A stretch of 64,000 nucleotides of DNA from NCBI GenBank assembly GCA_036833455.1, contig DAITPU010000001.1, positions 7,549 to 71,548 of the forward strand, in the 5' to 3' direction. Below the pieces are notes generated by a model. It worked only from the letters and a program-made list of their open reading frames with translations. It did not search any database and had not been told where the DNA came from. The translations under genes and the position numbers were made by a program. Below, piece by piece: positions 1 through 34,113 of this stretch; within the stretch, counting starts at the first letter, position 1; every line of letters starts with the position of its first letter. This stretch comes from a bacterium. GTDB taxonomy: Archaea; Nanobdellota; Nanobdellia; Pacearchaeales; GW2011-AR1.

Positions 1-2900
1 TGCCGTCGTAGAATCATTCAAATCAAAAGGTAAATTCAAAACAGCCCAAGAGGTTCCATTCAACCTCCAATCTGTAATATTATAAATTAAATCTTCATCT
101 AAATCTGTTGAATTAGAAATATAAACACTCAAATTTTCAAAAGTAGTATTAGTTCCCGAAGAGGAATTTAAAATAACTATTGGAAAAGTTGGAGCGCTAT
201 TAACTTGTTCACCTAAGATAGTCAAATTAGAACTTAAAACTGAAGTTCCTTCCGAAGAAAAATTAGTTGGAGTTACCATTACTGACCAATTTTCTCCAAC
301 TGAAGTTTCTTGCGAAACAATTGTTTCGATTGATTTATTATTTAATCCAGCTTGATAAATAGCACTAATTTGTTCTGCTGAAAGTGCTTCATCAAATATC
401 ATTACTTCATCTATTGAACCATTAAAATAATTACCTGCTGCATTAAATGTAGCAAAAAGTAAATTATTGGTAGATTTCCCGACAGAAAAACTTTTACTTA
501 AAGAAAAAACATTACTTCCATCTAAATAACCTTCCCACTTACTTCCATTATAAGAATAAACTATATGGTGCCAATTTGTATCTGAAAGAGTTATTCCAGA
601 ACCAGTTCGAGGATTATCTCCTGTATAAACCCCAGAATAAAATTCAACTTGATTATTTACATACTCCCAAATTAAAGAATAAACATTATCTGTTCCAGCA
701 TCATTCCTTTTAGATAAAAGATATCTATTAGTTTGACTTAAATCGCTAGGTTTAATCCAAAGTGAAAAAGCAAAATTATTTGTTAAATTTAAAGTTCCAT
801 TATAAGGAACGGTAATATAATCCCCTCCATCAAAATTGTAACATCCTCCCACTTTACAATTTGAACTCCAAGTTGGTTTTGCAGTTGATGAAGCCAGAGT
901 TCCATTATTTCCATAAGTTGAATAATCTTTTGCCGTCGTAGAATCATTCAAATCAAAGGGCATATTCAAAACTGCCCAAGAGGTTCCATTTAATCTCCAA
1001 TCTGTAATAGTTGCATTCGTATCAGTTGAAGAAATATACGCCGTTAAATTTTCATTAGTAGTATTAGTTCCCGAAGAGGAATTTAGAATTACTGAATTTA
1101 TTATTGGATTTCTTACTAAATCCAAAATAGTCAAATTAGAACTTAAAACTGAAGTTCCTTCTAAACTTAAATCTGTGGGAGTGGATCTAACTGACCAATT
1201 TTCTCCAACTGAAGTTTCTTGCGAAACAATTGTTTCGATTGATTGATTATTTAATCCAGCTTGATAAATAGCACTAATTTGTTCTGCTGAAAGTGCTCTA
1301 TTGAAGATCATAAATTCATCAATTCTTCCTTTAAAATATTTTTCACCATTATTAGCTTGATCTGCCGCTCCTATTTGATGGCTTGTATAGGTTCCAGACC
1401 AATCAAGAGTAATATTTCCGATAGTATTATTTGCTACACGAGAACCATTAAAATAAATTTTCATTTCATTTCCATCATAAGTTACCACAAGATGATGCCA
1501 TTGATTAGTTGAAGGGAGAGAAGCCGGATTCCATGCACAAGAATATCTAGTAGTAGAACTATGTAAATCATAATATATCGTGTTTAAACTTCCCCAACTA
1601 CTTATTGCAATACCTCCATCATAATTGTTGTTAGTAAGATGTTGCCCCCCATAAAAACCAGGATAAGTGTTTTGAGACCAATTTGAAGAATTTATCCACA
1701 TCACAATTGAGTGAGGTCCTGTTTGTCTAGCTGAATCTGGAAGAGTTATTTTATCGTTACTTCCATCAAAACTATAACATCCTCCAACCTTACAATTTGA
1801 AACCCAGGTTGCTCCACTTACAGAACCATTATTACTCAATGTAGAATAATCTTTAGTTACACTAGAATTTTCTAAATCAAAGGGCATATTCATCGCTGCC
1901 CAAGAAGCACCGTTTACTCTCCAATCCGTAATCGTTGAATTTGAATTAGTTGAATTTATATATGCGGTTAAATTCTCATTAGTAGTATTAGTTCCCGAAG
2001 AGGAATTTAGAATTACTGAATTAACAGTAGGGATTCCTACAAAATTTTCATAAGGTAAAACATTTCCTGAATTGTAAAGAGTTTGAATTTCCGATAAACT
2101 TAACTCTCTATTCCAAATTGCCCATTCATCATAATCTATATTTATTACGGCCCCCCCTCCAAGCAAACCAAGATTTGCATTAACTGTAGTTGCACCGCTT
2201 GTAGTCCTATTATAAGCTGAAACTGCATTAACATAAAGTTTTACATGGCTTGAACTATTCATTGTAATAACCACATGATACCATGTGTCTGCAGAAAAAT
2301 TTACTGAAGATGAATATTGAACCCAAGTTCCACTTGGCCTATCAGTAACATAAAAAACATAATTAGCTCCATCCAATTTAGTTCCTACAAAAAAGTTTAG
2401 ATTAGCTGCATTATTTGCATATTGCCCCCAAAATGCTCCTGGATTAGAATTATTACTCCTAACCCAAAAACTATGTGTAAAAGCTGAAGTTCTACTCTGT
2501 AATGCCCCTAAAGCAAGTCCTTGGTCATTAGTATTTCTTCCTCTAATTCTTAAAGCATTATTTTCTTTTCCACTAATCCAACTATATGTAAAAATAGCAG
2601 TTCTATTATCTGAAGCATGACTATCATATGCAGTACTTCCACTTGATTCATCTAACTTCCAATAAGAAACTAATCCGTTAGTTAAATTATATGAAGGATC
2701 AACAGCCAAATCACTAACAACTCTACTCTCGTCGGCAAAACTAAAATTCAAAACAGCGTATCCTGCTATATTCATAAATGAACTAAACTCTCCTGTATCC
2801 AAACAAGAATAATTTTCAACAAAAAATTTCAAAGGCTTAACACTTTCATTTATTTCCGAATATTTTAAAATTTCTTCATTTTCAGTAATAATATACAAAT
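1..2900 (-). repeat. In-frame tandem DNA repeats of about 910-930 bp (at least 3 copies) inside the giant surface-protein gene
   Basis: Exact 27-mer tgccgtcgtagaatcattcaaatcaaa occurs at 1 and 931. The 44-mer ttctccaactgaagtttcttgcgaaacaattgtttcgattgatt occurs at 291 and 1201. tattagttcccgaagaggaattta occurs at about 150, 1062 and 1985. Each unit encodes one LamG-like module. Confidence 0.8.
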
Positions 2901-13773: not shown

Positions 13774-13894
13774 TGATCCTGCTGAGATTTGAACTCAGGA
13801 CCTCTGGCTCTCTTAGAAAGCTCCAAGAGATAGCAACCCTAACGAATTACTTTCTTATAAGACCAGCGCTCTAACCAGGCTGAGCTACAGGATC
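13774..13894 (-). tRNA. tRNA-Ile (anticodon UAU) with a 47-48 nt intron 3' of the anticodon; CCA not encoded
   Basis: Manual cloverleaf on the minus strand reads GATCCTG-TA-GCTC-AGCCTGGTTA-GAGC-G-CTGGT-CTTATAA-[intron GAAAG..AAGAG]-GCCAG-AGGTC-CTGAG-TTCAAAT-CTCAG-CAGGATC-A. All stems pair. Confidence 0.7.
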
Positions 13895-15951: not shown

Positions 15952-17565
15952 ATGGTGAAAAATAATAATATCCTTTCTGAAAATATGGATCGGCTTTTAG
16001 GAAGAGACGCTCAAAGAAATAACATTTTTGCTGCAAGAATGGTGGCTGAAATAGTAAAAACTACTTTGGGCCCAAAAGGTATGGACAAAATGTTGGTTAC
16101 TCCTACAAACGAAATAATAGTTACAAATGATGGGGTGACCATTTTAGAAGAAATGGAAATTGAACATCCGGCAGCAAAAATGATGGTTGAAGTTGCAAGA
16201 ACCCAAGAAAAAGAAGTGGGAGATGGAACAACTACTTCTGTTATGATTGCTGGAAAATTATTAGAAAACGCAGAAAAACTAATTGATAAAAAAATTCATC
16301 CTACAATTATTTCTAAGGGATATCGAATTGCGGAAAGAAAAGCACAAGAAATCCTCCAAGAAATATCTTTAAAAATTTCCCCAGAAGATTTATCCACACT
16401 AAAGAAAATTGCAATGACCGCAATGACTGGAAAAGGTGCAGAAGATGAAAAAGAAAAATTTTCAGAAATTATAGTTAGCGCAATAAAAACAATTCAAAAT
16501 AAAGGAAAAATAAATATAGAAGACATAAAAATAGAAAAAGTCCTGGGCGATGGAATTAAAGACACAGAATTAATTCAAGGAATAGTTTTAGATAAAGAAA
16601 AAACTTCAAAAGATATGCCCTCTTTAATTGGGAAAGCTAAAATACTTTTAATTGATTTTCCCTTGGAAATCCAAACTCCGGAATTACAAACGAGAATTTC
16701 TATTTCAAGTCATTCAGAACTTCAAAAAATCTTAGGTGAAGAAGAAAATTCTATTAAAAAAATGGTTGAAAAAATATCTGAATCCGAAGCAAATGTTATT
16801 TTTTGTCAAAAAGGAATAGATGATTTTGCAAATTACTTGTTAGCTAAGAGAGGGATTTATACTTGTAGAAGAGTTCCAAAATCAGATATGGAAAAAATCT
16901 CAAAAGCAACTGGCGGAAAAATAATTTCAAACTTAAATGAAATAAATTCTTATGAATTGGGAGAAGCTGAAAACGTAGAAGAGATAAAAAGAGGAAAAGA
17001 GATAATGACTTACATAAAAGGATGCAAGAATCCAAAAGCAGTTACAATACTTATTCACGGAGGAACAAAACACATACTTGATGAAATCGAAAGGGCCTTC
17101 CTTGATGGAATAGGAGATATTGTTTCAACAATAGAAACTGGATTAGTTGTTCCAGGAGGAGGTGCAATAGAAATTGAATTAGGGAAAAGATTAAGAGAAT
17201 TTTCAAACACACTTCAAGGAAGAGAAAGATTAGCCGTAGAAGAATTTGCCAATGCTCTTGAATTTATTCCAACAACTTTAGCAGAAAATGCTGGATTGGA
17301 CCCAATAGATATTTTGACTGAATTGAAAGCAAAACATGAATCAGGAGATAAAAATGCCGGATTAAATCTTTTTACAAATAAAGTGGAAAATGTCTTAAAT
17401 GCAAGAATAATTGAACCTTACAAAATTAAATCCCAAGCCCTAAGTTCAGCAACAGATGTTGCAACAATGATTTTAAGAATAGATGATGTTATTGCGGCAA
17501 AACCTGCCAAAAAAGGAATGATTGATTCTGGAAAAGTTCCTGATTACTTTGGGGGATTGAGTTAA
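15952..17565 (+). CDS. ths: Thermosome subunit (group II chaperonin, Cpn60/TCP-1 family)
   Basis: Contains [24 protein letters not shown] and IEPYKIK. The length is 537 aa. Confidence 0.95.
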
Positions 17566-17601: not shown

Positions 17602-18699
17602 ATGCATTATCATATAATCTTAACCGAAAGATGTAACTTACGTTGCAAATATTGCTATGAAAAATCTATGAAAGAATTCGAAAATGGTTTGGAAAAAAAA
17701 TGGAATTATGATGAAAATGTGCCTTTTGACACAGAAGTTCCAATTGAAAAATTAAAAAATTTCTTAAAATCAGAAGATACTTTAATATTTTACGGAGGAG
17801 AACCCTTAATAAAAATTGATAAAATAAAAGAAATTATAGATAATTTAAATTGTGAATTCGCCATGCAAACAAATGGAATTCTTTTAAATAAACTCCCAAT
17901 AAATTATCTAAATAAAATTAAAAAAATATTAATTTCGCTTGATGGAACTCCAGAAAGAACAAATCATAACAGAGGAAATGGAAAATACGAAATAATTTTA
18001 AAAAATATAAAAGAGATTAGAGAAAAAGGTTACAAAGGAGAAATTGTAGCAAGAATGACTCTTTCATATCCAGACATTTACGAACAAGCACTTCATCTCC
18101 TAAATCAACCAAAAATATTTAATTCTATACATTGGCAAATTGATGCTGGTTTTTACAAATTCGACTTTGATAAAGAAAAATTCACAAACTTTGTTGAAGA
18201 ATATAATGAATCTGTAAACAAACTTTTAAATTATTGGATAAAAGAAATGGAAAGAGGAAAAGTTTTGAAAATTTATCCATTTTTAGGAATATTTGACACG
18301 TTATATTATAATAAAAAATCTTTAATACAATGTGGATCTGGGCATTCAAATTTTACAATAAATACTTCTGGAAAAATTTCTGCATGCCCAATAATAAATT
18401 CGGTAAAAAATTTTTATTGCGGGGATATTTCAAATAAAAAAATAAAAAATTTAATTTTGAATGATAAAGAATGTGAAAAATGTGAATTTTTCAAAATATG
18501 TGGTGGGCGTTGTTTATATTGGCGTAGTGCAAAATTATGGCCTCCAGAAGGAGACAAATTAATATGCGAAACAATCAAAAATTTAATATTAAAAATAAAA
18601 GAAAAAATTCCTGAAATAAAAGATTTAATCGAAAAAAAGATAATCTCTGAAAAAGATTTTGAATTTGAGAGATATTTTGGACCTGAAATTATCCCTTAA
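17602..18699 (+). CDS. Radical SAM enzyme with a C-terminal SPASM/twitch auxiliary Fe-S domain
   Basis: CNLRCKYC is a CxxxCxxC motif at the N-terminus. The C-terminal Cys cluster is CGSGHS...SACP...CEKCEFFKICGGRCLYW. Confidence 0.75.
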   Translation: MHYHIILTERCNLRCKYCYEKSMKEFENGLEKKWNYDENVPFDTEVPIEKLKNFLKSEDTLIFYGGEPLIKIDKIKEIIDNLNCEFAMQTNGILLNKLPINYLNKIKKILISLDGTPERTNHNRGNGKYEIILKNIKEIREKGYKGEIVARMTLSYPDIYEQALHLLNQPKIFNSIHWQIDAGFYKFDFDKEKFTNFVEEYNESVNKLLNYWIKEMERGKVLKIYPFLGIFDTLYYNKKSLIQCGSGHSNFTINTSGKISACPIINSVKNFYCGDISNKKIKNLILNDKECEKCEFFKICGGRCLYWRSAKLWPPEGDKLICETIKNLILKIKEKIPEIKDLIEKKIISEKDFEFERYFGPEIIP

Positions 18700-18707
18700 A
18701 AACATTA

Positions 18708-18857
18708 TTATTTATTTTTCAAACTAATAAAAGTCCTTTCTCTTTGAATTTCTCTAGACTTCTTATTTTCCGCTTTTTGTTCTTGAGACATAGGCTTTTT
18801 CCCATGTTTCTTGTTCATTCCTCTTTGCTTATTTTTCTTTACTCTTTTACTCGCCAT
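18708..18857 (-). CDS. Unannotated small ORF encoding a 49-aa lysine-rich basic protein (MASKRVKKNKQRGMNKKHGKKPMSQEQKAENKKSREIQRERTFISLKNK)
   Basis: Manual translation. It is below the ORF-track length cutoff, has no Cys, and is convergent with the radical SAM gene. Confidence 0.3.
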   Translation of the reverse strand: MASKRVKKNKQRGMNKKHGKKPMSQEQKAENKKSREIQRERTFISLKNK

Positions 18858-18896
18858 CCTAAAATTAGATTTAATTAGTTTATATTGCTTTGTTTT

Positions 18897-19664
18897 TTAT
18901 AAAACTTCATCCTTAAATATTTTATAAAAATTTTCATCTATAATTTTATCTGCTTTTTTTATCGGAACTTTCCATATTTCAGAAATCTTCTTTAAACCCT
19001 CAAAAACAAAAGAAGGCTCATTTTCAATTTCCTTAAACGGAGAGGCATAAGGACTATCAGTCTCAGTCAATATATTTTCTTTAGGAGTTATTTCAAGAAG
19101 CTTTTGAAAATGCTCTGACCTAACTACATTTGCTGGAATTGAAAAGTAAAAACTTGAATTAATTGCCTCTTTCACTAAAGTAAAATTTCCTGAAAAAAAA
19201 TGGAGAATAATTTTTAAATCTTTAAAATCTTGGAGAATTTCTATCACTCTTTTTTCAGCCTTTCTTGTATGAATAATTACGGGTAAATTTAGGTTCCTAG
19301 CCAAATTTAGTTGATTAATAAAAATTTTTTCTTGAATTTCCCGAGAAGGTAATTCCTCTGAAAAATCCAATCCAACCTCTCCAATAGCAGAAATATTTTT
19401 TTTATTTTCTAAGACCCATTTCTCAAAAATAGCATATTTTTCCAAAGAGATATTTTTCTCTGGATAAAGCCCAACTGCAAGCTTAACAAAATGAAATTCT
19501 TGGGAAATCTTTAAATTTTTTTTGCACGAATTTAAATTAACGGAATTAGTTACAATAAATTCAACCCCAATTTTTTTAGCATTATCAATTATTTTTAATA
19601 ACTTTTCTCTTGAATAAAAATCCAAATTGGCGTGAACATCTATCATAAAGGAAAAAGAGAACAA
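18897..19664 (-). CDS. tatD: TatD-family metal-dependent hydrolase/DNase
   Basis: MIDVHANLD, GEVGLDF and IIHTR are the TatD signature His/Asp/Glu motifs. Confidence 0.8.
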   Translation of the reverse strand: MFSFSFMIDVHANLDFYSREKLLKIIDNAKKIGVEFIVTNSVNLNSCKKNLKISQEFHFVKLAVGLYPEKNISLEKYAIFEKWVLENKKNISAIGEVGLDFSEELPSREIQEKIFINQLNLARNLNLPVIIHTRKAEKRVIEILQDFKDLKIILHFFSGNFTLVKEAINSSFYFSIPANVVRSEHFQKLLEITPKENILTETDSPYASPFKEIENEPSFVFEGLKKISEIWKVPIKKADKIIDENFYKIFKDEVL

Positions 19665-19680
19665 GAGTTTTTAGGGTTTT

Positions 19681-20538
19681 CTAAAAAACAGTTGCATATA
19701 CTACTGCAAGAACAATTATTATTGAAGATAATATGTTTCTCCAATCAGGTTTATCTTTTAAAAACTTCCAAGCGAATAAATATACAAAAACAGGTCCAAG
19801 CATAATCATAAGAGTTGTTTCTATAATCCCCAAAGTAGTATATCCGTAATAAATTAAAATTCTAAATCCTACCCATAAAAAAGAAGTCAATAAAATATGT
19901 AAAATAGTTTTATTGTCAACTTCTCCAAATAGTTTAGGTCTAAATAAAATAAAACTAAGCCCAAATATTAAAATACATCTTACAAAATAAAAAGAGAAAG
20001 GAGAATAAATATCCAGTAAAATTCTTGAAACAACTAATTCTGCTGCAAAAAATAAACTTCCTAAAATTGCAAATTTGAAATACTTATTAAATTCCAAATG
20101 ATCTCTTCTAAAATGAGAAAAAATCAAAGCTGCTCCTGCTACAAGTGCAGGAATTATAAATTTTAGATTACGTTCATAAAGACCTTCTCCAAAAATATAA
20201 CTAAAAATAACAGCAAGCATTACTGTAAACAAAGGTTCCATCATTCTTGCAGGCTCCAAACGAGAAATCTTCTCCCATTTCAAAGATTGGAAAATAAACC
20301 AATTTGCAAATAAAGCCAAAACAACTACAACTAATAAAATCAAAATATTTTCTAAAGAATAAGCCAAACTAGAAACATCCCAAAAAAAGAAAGTGAAAGG
20401 AATCATCACGAGAACTATAAACAAAAAGCTATAAGTTTCATAAAATTTAACAGACATATTCTTTCTTTTCAATAAAATTCTTTCAATTAAAGTTCCCCCT
20501 GCCAAAGCAGTAGCACTAAGAATAGGAATCCAAATCAT
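19681..20538 (-). CDS. Polytopic membrane protein, DMT/EamA-like transporter fold (about 10 TM helices)
   Basis: Hydropathy only, with two repeated 4-5 TM halves. Confidence 0.4.
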   Translation of the reverse strand: MIWIPILSATALAGGTLIERILLKRKNMSVKFYETYSFLFIVLVMIPFTFFFWDVSSLAYSLENILILLVVVVLALFANWFIFQSLKWEKISRLEPARMMEPLFTVMLAVIFSYIFGEGLYERNLKFIIPALVAGAALIFSHFRRDHLEFNKYFKFAILGSLFFAAELVVSRILLDIYSPFSFYFVRCILIFGLSFILFRPKLFGEVDNKTILHILLTSFLWVGFRILIYYGYTTLGIIETTLMIMLGPVFVYLFAWKFLKDKPDWRNILSSIIIVLAVVYATVF

Positions 20539-20576
20539 GCATTATAAAAATAATTGAAGTTTAAAAAAATGTTGAA

Positions 20577-20675
20577 TGGGCTCAGTAGGTGAAAAAGTTC
20601 ACGAGCCTTATGTGAAACTCGGAAGTGGGCTTGAGAGTTAGAACCTGCGATCTACTCGGTGTAAATAACATGACG
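20577..20675. other. GC-rich structured element of about 100 nt that does not fold as a tRNA; possible tRNA-Val-derived remnant or small ncRNA
   Basis: GC is well above the local background. Internal hairpins are present (GGCTC...GAGCC, GTGAA-AAAG-TTCAC). It shares gatct[a/t]ctcggtgtaaa (17 of 18 nt) with the anticodon/variable region of the adjacent tRNA-Val, but its T-arm and acceptor cannot pair. Confidence 0.2.
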
Positions 20676-20713
20676 GTTTTTCTTGGTTTTTAGAAAAAAT
20701 AATAAAAATATGA

Positions 20714-20786
20714 ATGGACCCTACCAGAATCGAACTGGTGATCTTCTCGGTGTAAACGAGACGTCGTAACCACTAGACTAAGGGTC
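20714..20786 (-). tRNA. tRNA-Val (anticodon UAC)
   Basis: Minus-strand cloverleaf reads GGACCCT-TA-GTCT..-TCTCG-TTTACAC-CGAGA-AGATC-ACCAG-TTCGATT-CTGGT-AGGGTCC-A. Confidence 0.85.
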
Positions 20787-20885
20787 CGCCAATAAGAAGA
20801 AAACAATCTTCCCTTTTAAAAAACTTTTGAAAAGGCTGTTCTTTAATTATTCTAAGGAATTCAAAAAGAAACAGCAGGTTTTTTA

Positions 20886-20957
20886 TGCGCGAGCCGGGAT
20901 TCGAACCCGGGTCTAAACGTTGGCAACGTCCAATTCTAACCACTGAACTACTCACGC
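20886..20957 (-). tRNA. tRNA-Gly (anticodon GCC)
   Basis: Minus-strand cloverleaf reads GCGTGAG-TA-GTTC-AGTGGTTA-GAAT-T-GGACG-TTGCCAA-CGTTT-AGAC-CCGGG-TTCGAAT-CCCGG-CTCGCGC-A. Confidence 0.85.
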
Positions 20958-21034
20958 TCAAAAATTTAAAAACAACTTAATTAAAAAACCTTATCATAAC
21001 AAACTTTTATAAATAAAACCAAACTATTTCAATT

Positions 21035-22810
21035 ATGAATCCTGAACAAAACATTCCCGGAATGGATCTTAACACAAAATATTCTAAAAATCCTATTCCA
21101 AAACAAGAAGATCCAGAAGAAGCAAAAAAGAAATTTGAGAAAACAAAAAAAGAATTAGAAAAATTAAAAGCCTATATTTTAAAAAAATACAAATTTATTG
21201 AAGCCATAGGGGTTCTTCCCCCCCAAGCAATTCCAAAATTTATTGATGAAGAAGAAGTTCCAAAAGAATCAAAAGATCACGTTCATATTGAATTAATAAT
21301 TCAAGAAGATAAAATAAAAGAAATTCCCAAATTAAAGGAAGATTTAATAAAAGAAATAGAAAAAACTAAGGAAAAAATTTGGTTGCATATCTTTACTCCA
21401 AAAGAAATATGGGAAATTTGTTTTGATCAAAAATTTGAACTTTCGGGTGCAATAAGTATGGCTTATCCTCTTTATGATAAAGGAATTTTAGGAGCTTTAC
21501 GTGTAGCTGAAATTCATAAATCATTGGTACTTCAAAAATTCGATAAATATGTTGTTAGTTACGTAATTGGAGGAAGTTTAGTTAGAGGGGAGGCAGAAAA
21601 AACTTCAGATGTTGATGTGTTTGTTGTTATCAATGATACTGATGTTAAAAGAATGCCTAGAAGAGAACTTCTTGATAGATTAAGAGGAATGATTTACCAA
21701 TATGTTGCAGAAGCAACTCAAATTGCAGGAGTTGAAAATAAATTAGAACCCCAAATATACTTATTAACTGATTTTTGGGATGCAGTAAAAGATGCTCATC
21801 CTGTAATGTTTACTTTTATTAGAGATGGAGTTCCTTTATACGATCGAGGAACTTTTATGCCTTGGAAGGCACTTTTAAGAATGGGTAAACTTAAACCTTC
21901 TCCAGAAGCAATTGATATGTTTATGAGTATGGGGGACGGCGTTATTCCAAGAAGCAAAAAAACACTTCTATCTGAAATATTTACAAATATTTTCTGGGGT
22001 GTCACAACTCCTGCTCAAGCAATGGTTATGCTTAACGGATCTCCCCCTCCAAACGCAAAAAAAGAACTCGTGAGGGATTTCAAAAAACAATTTCTAGAAA
22101 CCAAAATGATTGAAAAAAAATATGTTGATTTCTTAGAAAAAGTTATTCAAACTTGGAGGGATTATGAACACGAAAAAATAAAAGAAATTTCAGGAGCTGA
22201 AATTGATAAACTCTTAAAACAAACTGAAGAATTTTTAAAAAGATTAAAAGAATTAAGAGAACAAATAGAAAAAAAATATCAAGGAGAAACAATAGAAAAA
22301 ATTTATCTGGACGTAATTGATTCTTTAAAAACACTTTTAGGCAAAAAATCCCAAACTAAACTAATAGAAGATTTTGAAGAAGAATATGTTAAAAAAGGTA
22401 AATTTAGCAAACAGCACTTAAGAATTTTAAAATCAATTCTCTCTTCAAGAGAGGATTATAAAAAAGGTAAAATGGACTCTCATAAAGCAGACAGAGCTAG
22501 AAGAGATGCAGATATTTTAATAAAAGATTTGGTTGAATTCAATCAAAGAAAAGAATTGATTCCTTTAGAAAAAGGGAAAATGAAATTGAGATTTAAAAAT
22601 AAAATAATTGAACTGATTCATGCAGATAAAAAGAGTTTTTTTATTGAAGGACAAAAAGTAAAGAAAATAGAAAAAGTTATTGAAGATTCTACATTAGAAG
22701 AATTGGATCAAGCTTTAGGAAAACAAAAAGAAAATGAGGAAGTAGAAATAAATCCAAAAGTTTTTGATATTCTTAGAAAAGCATTTGGAGAATTTGAAAT
22801 TATTTTATAA
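21035..22810 (+). CDS. 591-aa protein with a Pol-beta-superfamily nucleotidyltransferase motif, flanked by K/E-rich helical regions
   Basis: GGSLVRGEAEKTSDVDVFVV matches the hG[GS]x9-13DhD NTase core. No further recognisable domains. Confidence 0.45.
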   Translation: MNPEQNIPGMDLNTKYSKNPIPKQEDPEEAKKKFEKTKKELEKLKAYILKKYKFIEAIGVLPPQAIPKFIDEEEVPKESKDHVHIELIIQEDKIKEIPKLKEDLIKEIEKTKEKIWLHIFTPKEIWEICFDQKFELSGAISMAYPLYDKGILGALRVAEIHKSLVLQKFDKYVVSYVIGGSLVRGEAEKTSDVDVFVVINDTDVKRMPRRELLDRLRGMIYQYVAEATQIAGVENKLEPQIYLLTDFWDAVKDAHPVMFTFIRDGVPLYDRGTFMPWKALLRMGKLKPSPEAIDMFMSMGDGVIPRSKKTLLSEIFTNIFWGVTTPAQAMVMLNGSPPPNAKKELVRDFKKQFLETKMIEKKYVDFLEKVIQTWRDYEHEKIKEISGAEIDKLLKQTEEFLKRLKELREQIEKKYQGETIEKIYLDVIDSLKTLLGKKSQTKLIEDFEEEYVKKGKFSKQHLRILKSILSSREDYKKGKMDSHKADRARRDADILIKDLVEFNQRKELIPLEKGKMKLRFKNKIIELIHADKKSFFIEGQKVKKIEKVIEDSTLEELDQALGKQKENEEVEINPKVFDILRKAFGEFEIIL

Positions 22811-22867
22811 TTCTATCTTAAATTTAAAGAACCCAAATAATAAAAACCAAGAATTCTTTTAAAGTGT

Positions 22868-23968
22868 ATGAAATATTTATTCATACTTGGAAGAAATCCT
22901 GAATTATCCAAACTAGAATTAAAAGAATTTTTTAAAGGAAAAATAAAAAGCTCTGAAGAAAAAGATACCGCTTTAATCTTAGATTTAGAATATTTAGAGA
23001 AAGATTCCTTAAAAAAATTAGGCGGAATAATAAGAATTGGGAAAATTTTATTGGAAACTTCAGAAAAGAATTTAGAGAAGGATTTAGAAAAAATTGAAAT
23101 TTATTCTGAAAAAAGCAATAAACTAACTTATACTTTATGGGAATATTCTTCTTATTCAGAAGAACTAAAAGAATATTTGAAAAATAGACTTAAATCAGAA
23201 AAAATAAAAGCAAATTACAAGGGATTGAACAGAGAAATAAAAATGCAAGAAAATTTCCTAAGAATTCCATCCTCAAAAACTCTGAACAAAGAATACTTTT
23301 TATTTTCTTCAAAAGATAAAGAATACTTCGGAGAAATAACTGAATTTCCTAATTCAGAAGAAATTGAAAAAAGGGATATTGAAAAACCTGTAAGAAGAGA
23401 AGAACTAGCTATTTCTCCCAGGCTTTCAAAAATAATGATAAATTTAGCAAATTTAAAAGAAGGAGAAACTTTGATTGATCCTTTTTGTGGAATCGGCGTT
23501 ATTCTCTCTGAAGCACTTTTACAGAAAATTAAAGTTATAGGAATAGACAAAGATAAAAGCGCAATTCAGGGAGCAGAAAAAAATTTAAAATGGTTTAAGT
23601 TCAAAAAAGATAATTATCTTTTATTTAATTCAGATTCAACAAAAATAAAAATTCCTAAAGGGGATTCAATCGTAACTGAACCTGATTTAGGAGAAACCTT
23701 TAAAAAAATACCTACAAAAGAAAAAGCAAAAAAAATAATTAAAGAATTTGAAGCATTGATTGAAAAAACGATAAATAATTTAAAAGAAAATACTGAAAAT
23801 AGAATAGTTTTCACCTCTCCTTACATAAGAATTGGTAAAAAAAGAATCTCTTGCGATATAGAAAAAATATGCAAAAACACTAGAACTAAACTAATTTTCC
23901 CCGGAATTCCAGAATATAGGGAAAACCAAATTGTTGGAAGAAAAATTTATGTTCTTGAAAAGAATTAA
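22868..23968 (+). CDS. Class I SAM-dependent methyltransferase, probably a Trm11/THUMP-like tRNA or RNA methyltransferase
   Basis: Motif I LIDPFCGIGVILSEA matches the DPFCGSGT type. The D/NPPY motif is non-canonical (IVTEPDLGE). Confidence 0.4.
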   Translation: MKYLFILGRNPELSKLELKEFFKGKIKSSEEKDTALILDLEYLEKDSLKKLGGIIRIGKILLETSEKNLEKDLEKIEIYSEKSNKLTYTLWEYSSYSEELKEYLKNRLKSEKIKANYKGLNREIKMQENFLRIPSSKTLNKEYFLFSSKDKEYFGEITEFPNSEEIEKRDIEKPVRREELAISPRLSKIMINLANLKEGETLIDPFCGIGVILSEALLQKIKVIGIDKDKSAIQGAEKNLKWFKFKKDNYLLFNSDSTKIKIPKGDSIVTEPDLGETFKKIPTKEKAKKIIKEFEALIEKTINNLKENTENRIVFTSPYIRIGKKRISCDIEKICKNTRTKLIFPGIPEYRENQIVGRKIYVLEKN

Positions 23969-33967: not shown

Positions 33968-34113
33968 TCCATCCACCCAGATTCGAACTGGGAACCTCTC
34001 GGGCACTGCTATGCCTTTTAGTTCTTGACTTTTAGGGTTTCATCGTATATCTTACTAGACACTCCGCCTTAGGATATCTACAGCCAAGCGCTCTGCCATT
34101 GAGCTATGGATGG
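33968..34113 (-). tRNA. tRNA-Tyr (anticodon GUA) with the archaeal/eukaryal C1-G72 pair and an intron of about 74 nt
   Basis: Cloverleaf reads CCATCCA-TA-GCTC-AATGGCA-GAGC-G-CTTGG-CTGTAGA-[intron]-CCGAG-AGGTT-CCCAG-TTCGAAT-CTGGG-TGGATGG-A. Confidence 0.7.

Follow-up and report, generated by a model that had tools for sequence, protein, structure and literature searches.

A probable tRNA-Val remnant in a Pacearchaeota genome carries an unexplained, possibly mobile hairpin insert in its T-loop

The DNA analysed here (the window, 64 kb in length) belongs to a DPANN archaeon with an AT-rich genome, a member of the Pacearchaeota, and DNA identical to it is present in two ENA metagenome assemblies (ERZ724101 and ERZ724098). 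On the minus strand, four features follow one another in the order tRNA-Gly(GCC) (20957-20886), tRNA-Val(UAC) (20787-20715), a GC-richer element (20675-20577), and a gene for an EamA-type transporter (20538-19681). The tRNA-Val gene, which is called by ARAGORN and scores 66.2 bits with the Rfam tRNA model, is the intact resident gene and serves as the reference copy; tRNA-Gly, detected by ARAGORN and Rfam, is the second tRNA of this conserved but rearrangement-prone locus. A thermosome gene is located at 15952-17565. Positions 17602-23968 form a conserved neighbourhood composed of genes for a radical-SAM protein, TatD, the EamA transporter, tRNA-Gly/Val, a nucleotidyltransferase-domain protein, and an N6/N4 methyltransferase, and homologous neighbourhoods are present in the related loci L064, L117, L128, L134, L137, and L138. 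The nucleotidyltransferase-domain protein has 591 aa and is up to 77% identical across genomes. Only the gap that contains the tRNA genes varies in arrangement from genome to genome, owing to inversions and to the insertion of DEAD-box helicase or GNAT genes. In addition, a promoter-like motif, CCAAACTTTTATAAA, is strongly conserved about 25-40 nt before the nucleotidyltransferase start codon; it reads ACAAACTTTTATAAA in the window (20996-21010) and has equivalents in L064, L129, L131, L134, and L137.

Relatives were sampled as 80 loci around homologues of the EamA gene, with one genome per species, and source records assign these homologues to Pacearchaeota or Nanoarchaeota. Extra loci were taken around homologues of the neighbouring nucleotidyltransferase gene, giving about 650 kb from about 90 genomes for the searches with the insert described below. 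The EamA gene is neighboured by tRNA-Gly and tRNA-Val in 39 related loci, in which every relative orientation occurs.

The original prediction described the element as GC-rich and structured, sharing a string with tRNA-Val without being a tRNA. Its GC content indeed lies above the background, at 0.40-0.41 (100-nt windows, 20550-20699) versus 0.21-0.31 in the coding flanks; the overall figures are 0.40 for the element and about 0.25 for the background, and the two tRNA genes have 0.43-0.45. The nested hairpin is present, with GGCTC (20579-20583) pairing to GAGCC (20603-20607) and GTGAA/TTCAC inside, as are the hexamer repeats GGGCTY (20578 and 20627), GTGAAA (20589 and 20612), and ACTCGG (20617 and 20654). 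The element is also not a tRNA by either tool, as 20577-20675 yields no ARAGORN call and no Rfam tRNA match even at E<=10. The shared string is real, but its count had to be lowered: GATCTACTCGGTGTAAAT (20649-20666, plus strand) differs from tRNA-Val at 20740-20757 by 2 mismatches and so agrees at 16 rather than 17 of 18 positions. No shuffle of the window reproduces the two matches of this 18-mer, which places them far beyond chance. When extended without gaps, the similarity becomes a 25-nt direct repeat (D2, 20641-20665 versus 20732-20756; 21/25, or 84%) with a spacing of 91 nt, and another repeat (D1, 78%) relates 20562-20579 to 20700-20717, the 3' end and trailer of tRNA-Val. The single-sequence fold is not unusually stable on either strand (z-scores of -0.56 for the plus strand and -1.63 for the minus strand), so that the impression of structure is owed to sequence that derives from a tRNA or is palindromic and not to a thermodynamic excess.

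Read on the minus strand, the element has the anatomy of the 3' part of a tRNA gene. Downstream of the intact tRNA-Val lies a 49-nt AT-rich spacer (20666-20714), consisting of the tRNA-Val trailer and a junction, ...CCAAGAAAAACCGTCATGTTA, ahead of the fragment. The fragment itself has the same orientation as tRNA-Val and opens with a 25-nt block, TTTACACCGAGTAGATCGCAGGTTC (20641-20665), which reads TTTACAC CGAGT AGATC GCAGG TTC. This block starts at position 32 of the anticodon loop and spans the anticodon loop, the 3' strand of the anticodon stem, the variable region (GUAGAUCGCAGG), the 5' strand of the T-stem, and the beginning of the T-loop. It differs from the resident tRNA-Val at 4 positions and is closer to other Pacearchaeota tRNA-Val sequences, being identical at 25/25 positions to the tRNA-Val of L024, L064, and L067 and to a tRNA-Val 3' fragment of L021. 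Next comes a 51-nt imperfect palindrome of about 47% GC (insert Y, 20590-20640), placed between the T-loop remnant and the 3' strand of the T-stem. Beyond it, CCTAC TGAGCCC A (20577-20589) supplies the T-stem 3' strand, the acceptor 3' strand, and the discriminator, in register with both the CCTGC CGGGTCC A that follows Y in L064 and the 3' end of the resident tRNA (D1). The T-rich trailer of the fragment (TTCAACATTTTTTTAAAC..., 20556-20576), in which TTCAACATTTTTTT follows the discriminator, resembles the trailer of the resident gene (TTCATATTTTTATTA). No acceptor 5' strand, D-arm, or anticodon-stem 5' strand lies ahead of the fragment, where there is just the AT-rich spacer. The element thus corresponds to part of a tRNA-Val gene, its 3' portion, directly oriented and with an interrupted T-loop, and, lacking those 5' parts, it cannot make a tRNA. 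It is probably a silent, incomplete second copy of tRNA-Val(UAC), encoded on the minus strand, that begins at the anticodon loop and includes the 3' end and the trailer.

Repeats of this kind recur in the related loci. Counting copies of the last 11 nt of a tRNA gene with at most 1 mismatch within 400 nt, 20 of 102 tRNA genes have their own 3' end repeated downstream and 0 of 102 upstream; by our own estimate, about 0.3 would be expected per side by chance. These repeats begin in the T-loop or at the anticodon loop. In L117, L137, and L061, the fragment starts exactly at TTTACAC, 47-50 nt downstream of tRNA-Val, just as in the window; the homologous spacer of these three loci is 47-49 nt long, and all four share the motif CAAGRTTTTTATNMATTTTA immediately before the fragment; the fragments of L117 and L137 have decayed beyond the T-stem. 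In L128, L050, and L012, a fragment of the same type lies 279-569 nt downstream of tRNA-Val, and the intervening DNA contains a GNAT acetyltransferase gene (L128) or small ORFs (L050 and L012). L055 contains an array of three tRNA-Val 3' halves (405-1600), two of which are complete and identical, and the array holds a ~1-kb cassette encoding a nucleotidyltransferase-like protein and a small ORF; a full tRNA-Val was not detected in the 6.8 kb examined there. No recognisable integrase is encoded by the cargo in L128, L050, L012, or L055. Finally, the locus is also present in the close relative L138, but the fragment and Y are both missing there.

Insert Y has a more restricted distribution. Within about 650 kb, a covariance model of its core (20596-20640) detects only the copies in the window, in L064 (696-742), and in L117 (6926-6970), the last in the opposite orientation. 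A metagenome pattern scan for Y gave 2 true matches (L113, which is the same as L064, and L117) and 16 chance ones in GC-rich bacterial DNA, and neighbour-gene look-ups among the closest relatives yielded no further copy; Y is absent from L138, L128, L129, and L134. The Y-bearing loci are all syntenic, with the radical-SAM gene, TatD, EamA, tRNA-Gly/Val, and the nucleotidyltransferase gene. In L064, Y agrees with the window copy in position and orientation, and the resident 3' end together with at least 30 nt of trailer is repeated exactly behind it; the anticodon part of the fragment has been lost there. In L117, the host is a second, incomplete copy of tRNA-Gly, in whose T-loop Y follows TTCGA (58/59), inverted relative to that tRNA. 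The three carriers are 87, 77, and 79% identical in Y, compared with 81-93% for tRNA genes and 51-61% for tRNA trailers, for which the chance level is 54%; orthologous proteins of the window and L117 are 51-57% identical. Because a neutral relic should have decayed, Y either spreads between genomes (recent transfer) or is subject to selection. That the nearest relatives lack Y, and that it occurs in two contexts, favours spread, and a small mobile insert that targets the T-loop is therefore the most interesting reading that the data allow, although three copies at one locus are too few to claim a mobile element. A protein-coding remnant, such as part of a split SSV-type integrase, was rejected, as the Y homologues differ by a 2-nt indel and their substitutions, judged by eye, are not synonymous-biased in any frame. 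A simple T-loop inversion between tRNA-Gly and tRNA-Val as the source of the inverted Y in L117 was also discarded, since no single inversion yields the observed junctions.

Other T-loop inserts are present in the sampled loci. Partial second copies of tRNA-Gly, running from the variable region to the 3' end, lie directly after the intact gene in L117 (6913-6999, minus strand), L018 (2434-2523, plus strand), L054 (from 2632, plus strand), and L031 (around 2059-2086, minus strand), and each has an insert after TTCGA. These inserts have common termini, CGA[AG]NAA... and ...GAGAGCT, and differing interiors of 35-115 nt; the interior in L117 is Y. An additional family (Z) consists of TT|TCCCNAGG(A)GGGATGA, a short hairpin with a UUCG cap, and CCT|CGATT. 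It occurs in L036, L011, L030, L050, L128 (about 2505-2535), and L073, always in sense orientation at T-loop position 55/56, and its hosts are silent tRNA-Val 3' copies and one tRNA-Gly copy. Z has no Rfam match; its 5-nt GAUGA bulge resembles a protein-binding motif.

The best explanation, which we put at roughly 60%, is that the element is an att-type displaced tRNA-Val fragment into whose T-loop Y was inserted later. The original prediction had listed a tRNA-derived, att-like scar as one of three possibilities, and this one is borne out by the direct orientation, the position 49 nt downstream, the exact start at the anticodon loop, the T-stem and acceptor 3' strands with discriminator and trailer, and the recurrence of the same architecture in many related genomes. 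Integration into tRNA genes has three known crossover regions in archaea and bacteria alike, two of which are stem-loops, those of the anticodon and of the T-arm, while the third is the 3' end (PMC8371274; PMC4383910), and the ends of inserted islands are marked by a regenerated target and a displaced fragment (PMC4383910). Because a regenerated tRNA together with a displaced 3' fragment whose start coincides with a loop boundary is the established signature of site-specific integration by a tyrosine recombinase, the tRNA-like part can be read as such a scar. Site-specific recombination at the anticodon loop of tRNA-Val would have generated a displaced, attR-type fragment: a tyrosine integrase would have regenerated the intact tRNA from a 3' half borne by the element and pushed the old 3' half downstream. 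The inserted DNA would since have been lost almost wholly, leaving the 49-nt spacer. The Y hairpin would then have entered the T-loop of the silent copy after the duplication, as a silent copy could tolerate an insertion there that a functional gene would not; Y would be one member of a small insert family that is confined, in a few Pacearchaeota, to this locus and there to the T-loops of silent tRNA copies. Most likely the element as a whole has no cellular function of its own. We infer the step from a direct 3' repeat to an integrase. A plain tandem duplication of the 3' half plus trailer would look the same, and the interval of 49 nt between the copies has no integrase gene or sizeable inserted element; the balance nevertheless tilts toward integration because relatives bear cargo at the corresponding position. 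Two observations sit uneasily with a neutral att relic, namely that the 25-nt block differs from the resident gene yet matches the tRNA-Val of distant relatives, and that the core of Y is as conserved as real tRNA genes.

Comparison with described systems gives a similar picture. The reference is the displaced tRNA fragments (attL/attR) left by tyrosine integrases of the SSV type, of the pTN3/pT26-2 type, and of bacterial P4/lambda-like elements, together with the sublocation classes of Williams 2002, for which PMC8371274 and PMC4383910 give summaries. Like such fragments, the copies at this locus are direct repeats of the 3' part of an intact tRNA, oriented like it and confined to its 3' side (D1 and D2 in the window); they begin at a loop boundary, which is the anticodon loop here and the T-loop in many related loci; and they are patchy among close relatives, some of which have cargo genes between tRNA and fragment. 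Unlike such fragments, the one in the window is separated from its tRNA by the spacer alone, without foreign DNA, an integrase, or the body of an element; it has 4/25 differences from the resident 3' half and an exact match to the tRNA-Val of other species; and its own T-loop is interrupted. The attP sequence expected for it is TTTACACCGAG...CCA. Scans of IMG/VR with the att-like block TTTACACCGAGNAGATCGCAGGTTC and with Y patterns returned chance matches or nothing, and a viral origin was rejected. Caldiarchaeum subterraneum offers another parallel, in that tRNA gene fragments and intron gain there arose through mobile-element recombination (Sugahara et al. 2012, PMC3293823). In that case, the gene and a 5' fragment are 1.8 kb apart and flank a recombinase ORF, and the inserts are true introns of a functional gene with bulge-helix-bulge (BHB) motifs, whereas the insert described here lies in a silent copy and has no BHB motif.

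Two other identities had been proposed for the element, half of a split tRNA and an unrecognised small ncRNA. A split-tRNA 3' half, or a tRNA with a non-canonical T-loop intron, would be spliced to give a functional tRNA-Val. Non-canonical BHB introns in T-loops and split or permuted tRNAs are known from Nanoarchaeum equitans, Caldivirga, and Thermofilum (PMC3218864, PMC4090602), and the insertion in a tRNA-like T-loop and the insert families common to different tRNAs are reminiscent of the T-loop introns. Pacearchaeota tRNA genes are rich in introns, the fragment begins at the anticodon loop and ends in an acceptor 3' strand plus A, and tRNA-Val was reported to be undetected in 15/54 complete Pacearchaeales genomes (bioRxiv 10.64898/2026.05.13.725050), which counts in the same direction. 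Against this, an intact tRNA-Val with the same anticodon, uninterrupted, is adjacent; the acceptor 3' strand TGAGCCC can form only 4/7 pairs with its resident 5' counterpart; a C-A mismatch is present in the T-stem; and the exon set is incomplete, as the anticodon-stem 5' strand is absent. A search of the 64 kb window revealed neither a 5' half with the acceptor GGGCTCA (GGGCTCA...ACTCG) nor a complementary leader. The 3' flank of such a 5' half would have to pair with AAAAACCGTCATGTTA, but the sequence upstream of the fragment is AT-rich rather than a GC-rich leader, and the complement of TAACATGACGGTT, allowing up to 2 mismatches, has no copy beyond chance in the window. Applied to three control tRNAs, a scan for BHB motifs (4-bp central helix, two 3-nt bulges, and flanking helices of at least 2 bp) recovered their canonical introns; in the window, L064, L117, and seven Z- and G-type fragments, it found no site that would restore the T-arm, and its counts equalled those of shuffled sequences. 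In addition, the fragment in L064 has no anticodon part, and those in L117 and L137 are decayed. The lack of a BHB motif, the variable orientation of the insert, and the adjacent intact genes thus argue against both a spliced intron and a split tRNA, and this reading, already largely refuted, is extremely unlikely. Two variants were set aside as well: an alternative 3' exon for the resident 5' half, given the 4/7 acceptor pairing and no BHB at the anticodon-loop junction, and a permuted tRNA, in which the order of the parts would need crossing pairs. Under the small-RNA proposal, the element or Y would be a functional small RNA or a cis-acting RNA. Y is strongly conserved, its core at the level of tRNA genes, but neither Rfam, nor folding statistics, nor covariation supports the proposal. 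The RNA might be a plus-strand transcript antisense to the 3' half of tRNA-Val that includes a long hairpin; alternatively, it might be tRNA-like, transcribed from the minus strand, and have a minihelix resembling an acceptor/T-arm at its 3' end. A 15-pair plus-strand hairpin is found in all three Y homologues, its four G-U pairs would be mismatches on the other strand, and the closing T-stem-like helix (GTAGG/CCTGC in the window) is fully paired only in the plus reading; the minus-strand GGCTCG, in turn, pairs with the acceptor 3' strand in the window and L064. Both strands have AT-rich, TATA-like sequence upstream and T-runs downstream. However, covarying pairs number 0 in either orientation among the three sequences, a competing 9-pair hairpin on the minus strand also has G-U pairs, and the minimum-free-energy structures of the homologues differ, with z-scores for the window and its homologues (-0.56, -1.63, -0.58, +0.38, -3.54, and -1.76) that are weak except for the plus strand of L064. 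No Rfam family matches the element, or Y alone, at gathering thresholds or at E<=10, and none was obtained in eight related loci at E<=1. The closest relatives lack Y, and its orientation relative to neighbouring genes is not conserved. A functional RNA is, on this evidence, improbable. A resemblance of the plus strand to 5S rRNA (GAAACUCGGAAGUG and GAGAGUUAGAACCUGC recall loop C and the 3' part of 5S) was dismissed: even the segment taken by itself has no Rfam match, part of the resemblance comes from the reverse complement of the tRNA T-arm, and 5S rRNA is detectable by Rfam inside the rRNA operon in 203/208 complete genomes of the phylum (bioRxiv 10.64898/2026.05.13.725050). A C/D-box or H/ACA guide RNA against tRNA-Val was likewise rejected, with no boxes seen by eye and nothing in Rfam.

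The displaced-fragment explanation can be extended by supposing that Y and the related inserts are a tiny mobile DNA element, site-specific for T-loop DNA, for which the relic in the window offered a safe landing site; such inserts would survive only in silent copies, since insertion into a functional tRNA gene would be lethal. Y occupies two host contexts at two insertion positions and in two orientations (in the window and L064, a tRNA-Val copy, with Y placed between the T-loop and the 3' strand of the T-stem; in L117, a tRNA-Gly copy, with Y inverted after TTCGA), and its carriers are highly identical even though their distribution is patchy. The inserts of L018, L031, and L054 occupy the same tRNA-Gly T-loop site, with common termini and different interiors, Z recurs at one position and in one orientation at six loci, and none of the sampled full-length tRNA genes has such an insert. 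Miniature inverted-repeat transposable elements (MITEs) and other palindromic elements, such as the RPEs of Rickettsia, are miniature palindromic insertion elements. Compared with these, Y is similar in being a short, GC-richer imperfect palindrome within the sequence of a structured-RNA gene, patchily distributed and highly identical between carriers. It is dissimilar in occurring as a single copy per genome stretch, in one syntenic neighbourhood so far, with no recognisable terminal inverted repeats or target-site duplication and with no dispersed copies in the sample of about 650 kb. The three clear copies from about 90 genomes could also owe their two contexts to local rearrangement of one ancestral copy, and we know of no transposase or other mechanism for insertions of the Y type. 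A mobile Y is therefore possible but doubtful. An even more tentative generalization, which we consider rather unlikely as it stands, is that the tRNA-Val/tRNA-Gly locus of Pacearchaeota acts as a recombination platform, in which the D-, anticodon, and T-loops of tRNA genes serve as junctions for cassettes and hairpins of 30-110 nt target T-loop DNA and persist only in silent 3' copies. The hairpin family would then comprise Y, the tRNA-Gly inserts with Y termini, and Z with its GGGAUGA bulge, and the element in the window would be an occupied landing pad.

A tRNA remnant is a known and routine object, here in a little-studied lineage, and Y is the only unusual part of the element: an ordinary remnant with an unexplained and possibly mobile hairpin insert in its T-loop. 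The remnant is of use as a footprint of recombination at a tRNA gene, which can mislead annotation by passing for an ncRNA or a split tRNA. Of wider interest is that such footprints are common at this Pacearchaeota locus, at about a fifth of the sampled tRNA genes, and that the silent copies repeatedly bear conserved hairpin inserts at fixed T-loop positions. The conserved T-loop hairpin is a modestly interesting loose end. The T-loop hairpins could be mobile or protein-binding RNA/DNA modules of a new class; should they prove to move or to have a function, the poorly known DPANN mobilome would gain a new small element, and the hairpins might bear on the non-detection of tRNA-Val in some Pacearchaeales genomes.

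Several further features of tRNA genes were observed in the window and its relatives. In L131 (about 2700-2880), three tandem copies of the tRNA-Val 5' part, extending to the D-loop and each followed by the same 35-nt unit, lie directly upstream of the intact gene, so that their D-loop junction is the mirror image of the 3' repeats. Downstream of tRNA-Gly in three different genomes (L046, L061, and L063), a conserved unit of 41-42 nt (...AATAAYGATTGCGKGG..CGAG..) precedes a second copy of the final 10-11 nt of that tRNA. The window also contains a tRNA gene at 33968-34113 (minus strand) with a long, 74-nt intron and a clear BHB motif, which was missed by ARAGORN in its bacterial mode, and a tRNA-Ser gene with a long intron at 13774-13894 (minus strand), whose 5' boundary is placed at 13865 or 13894 depending on whether ARAGORN or Rfam is used, respectively.
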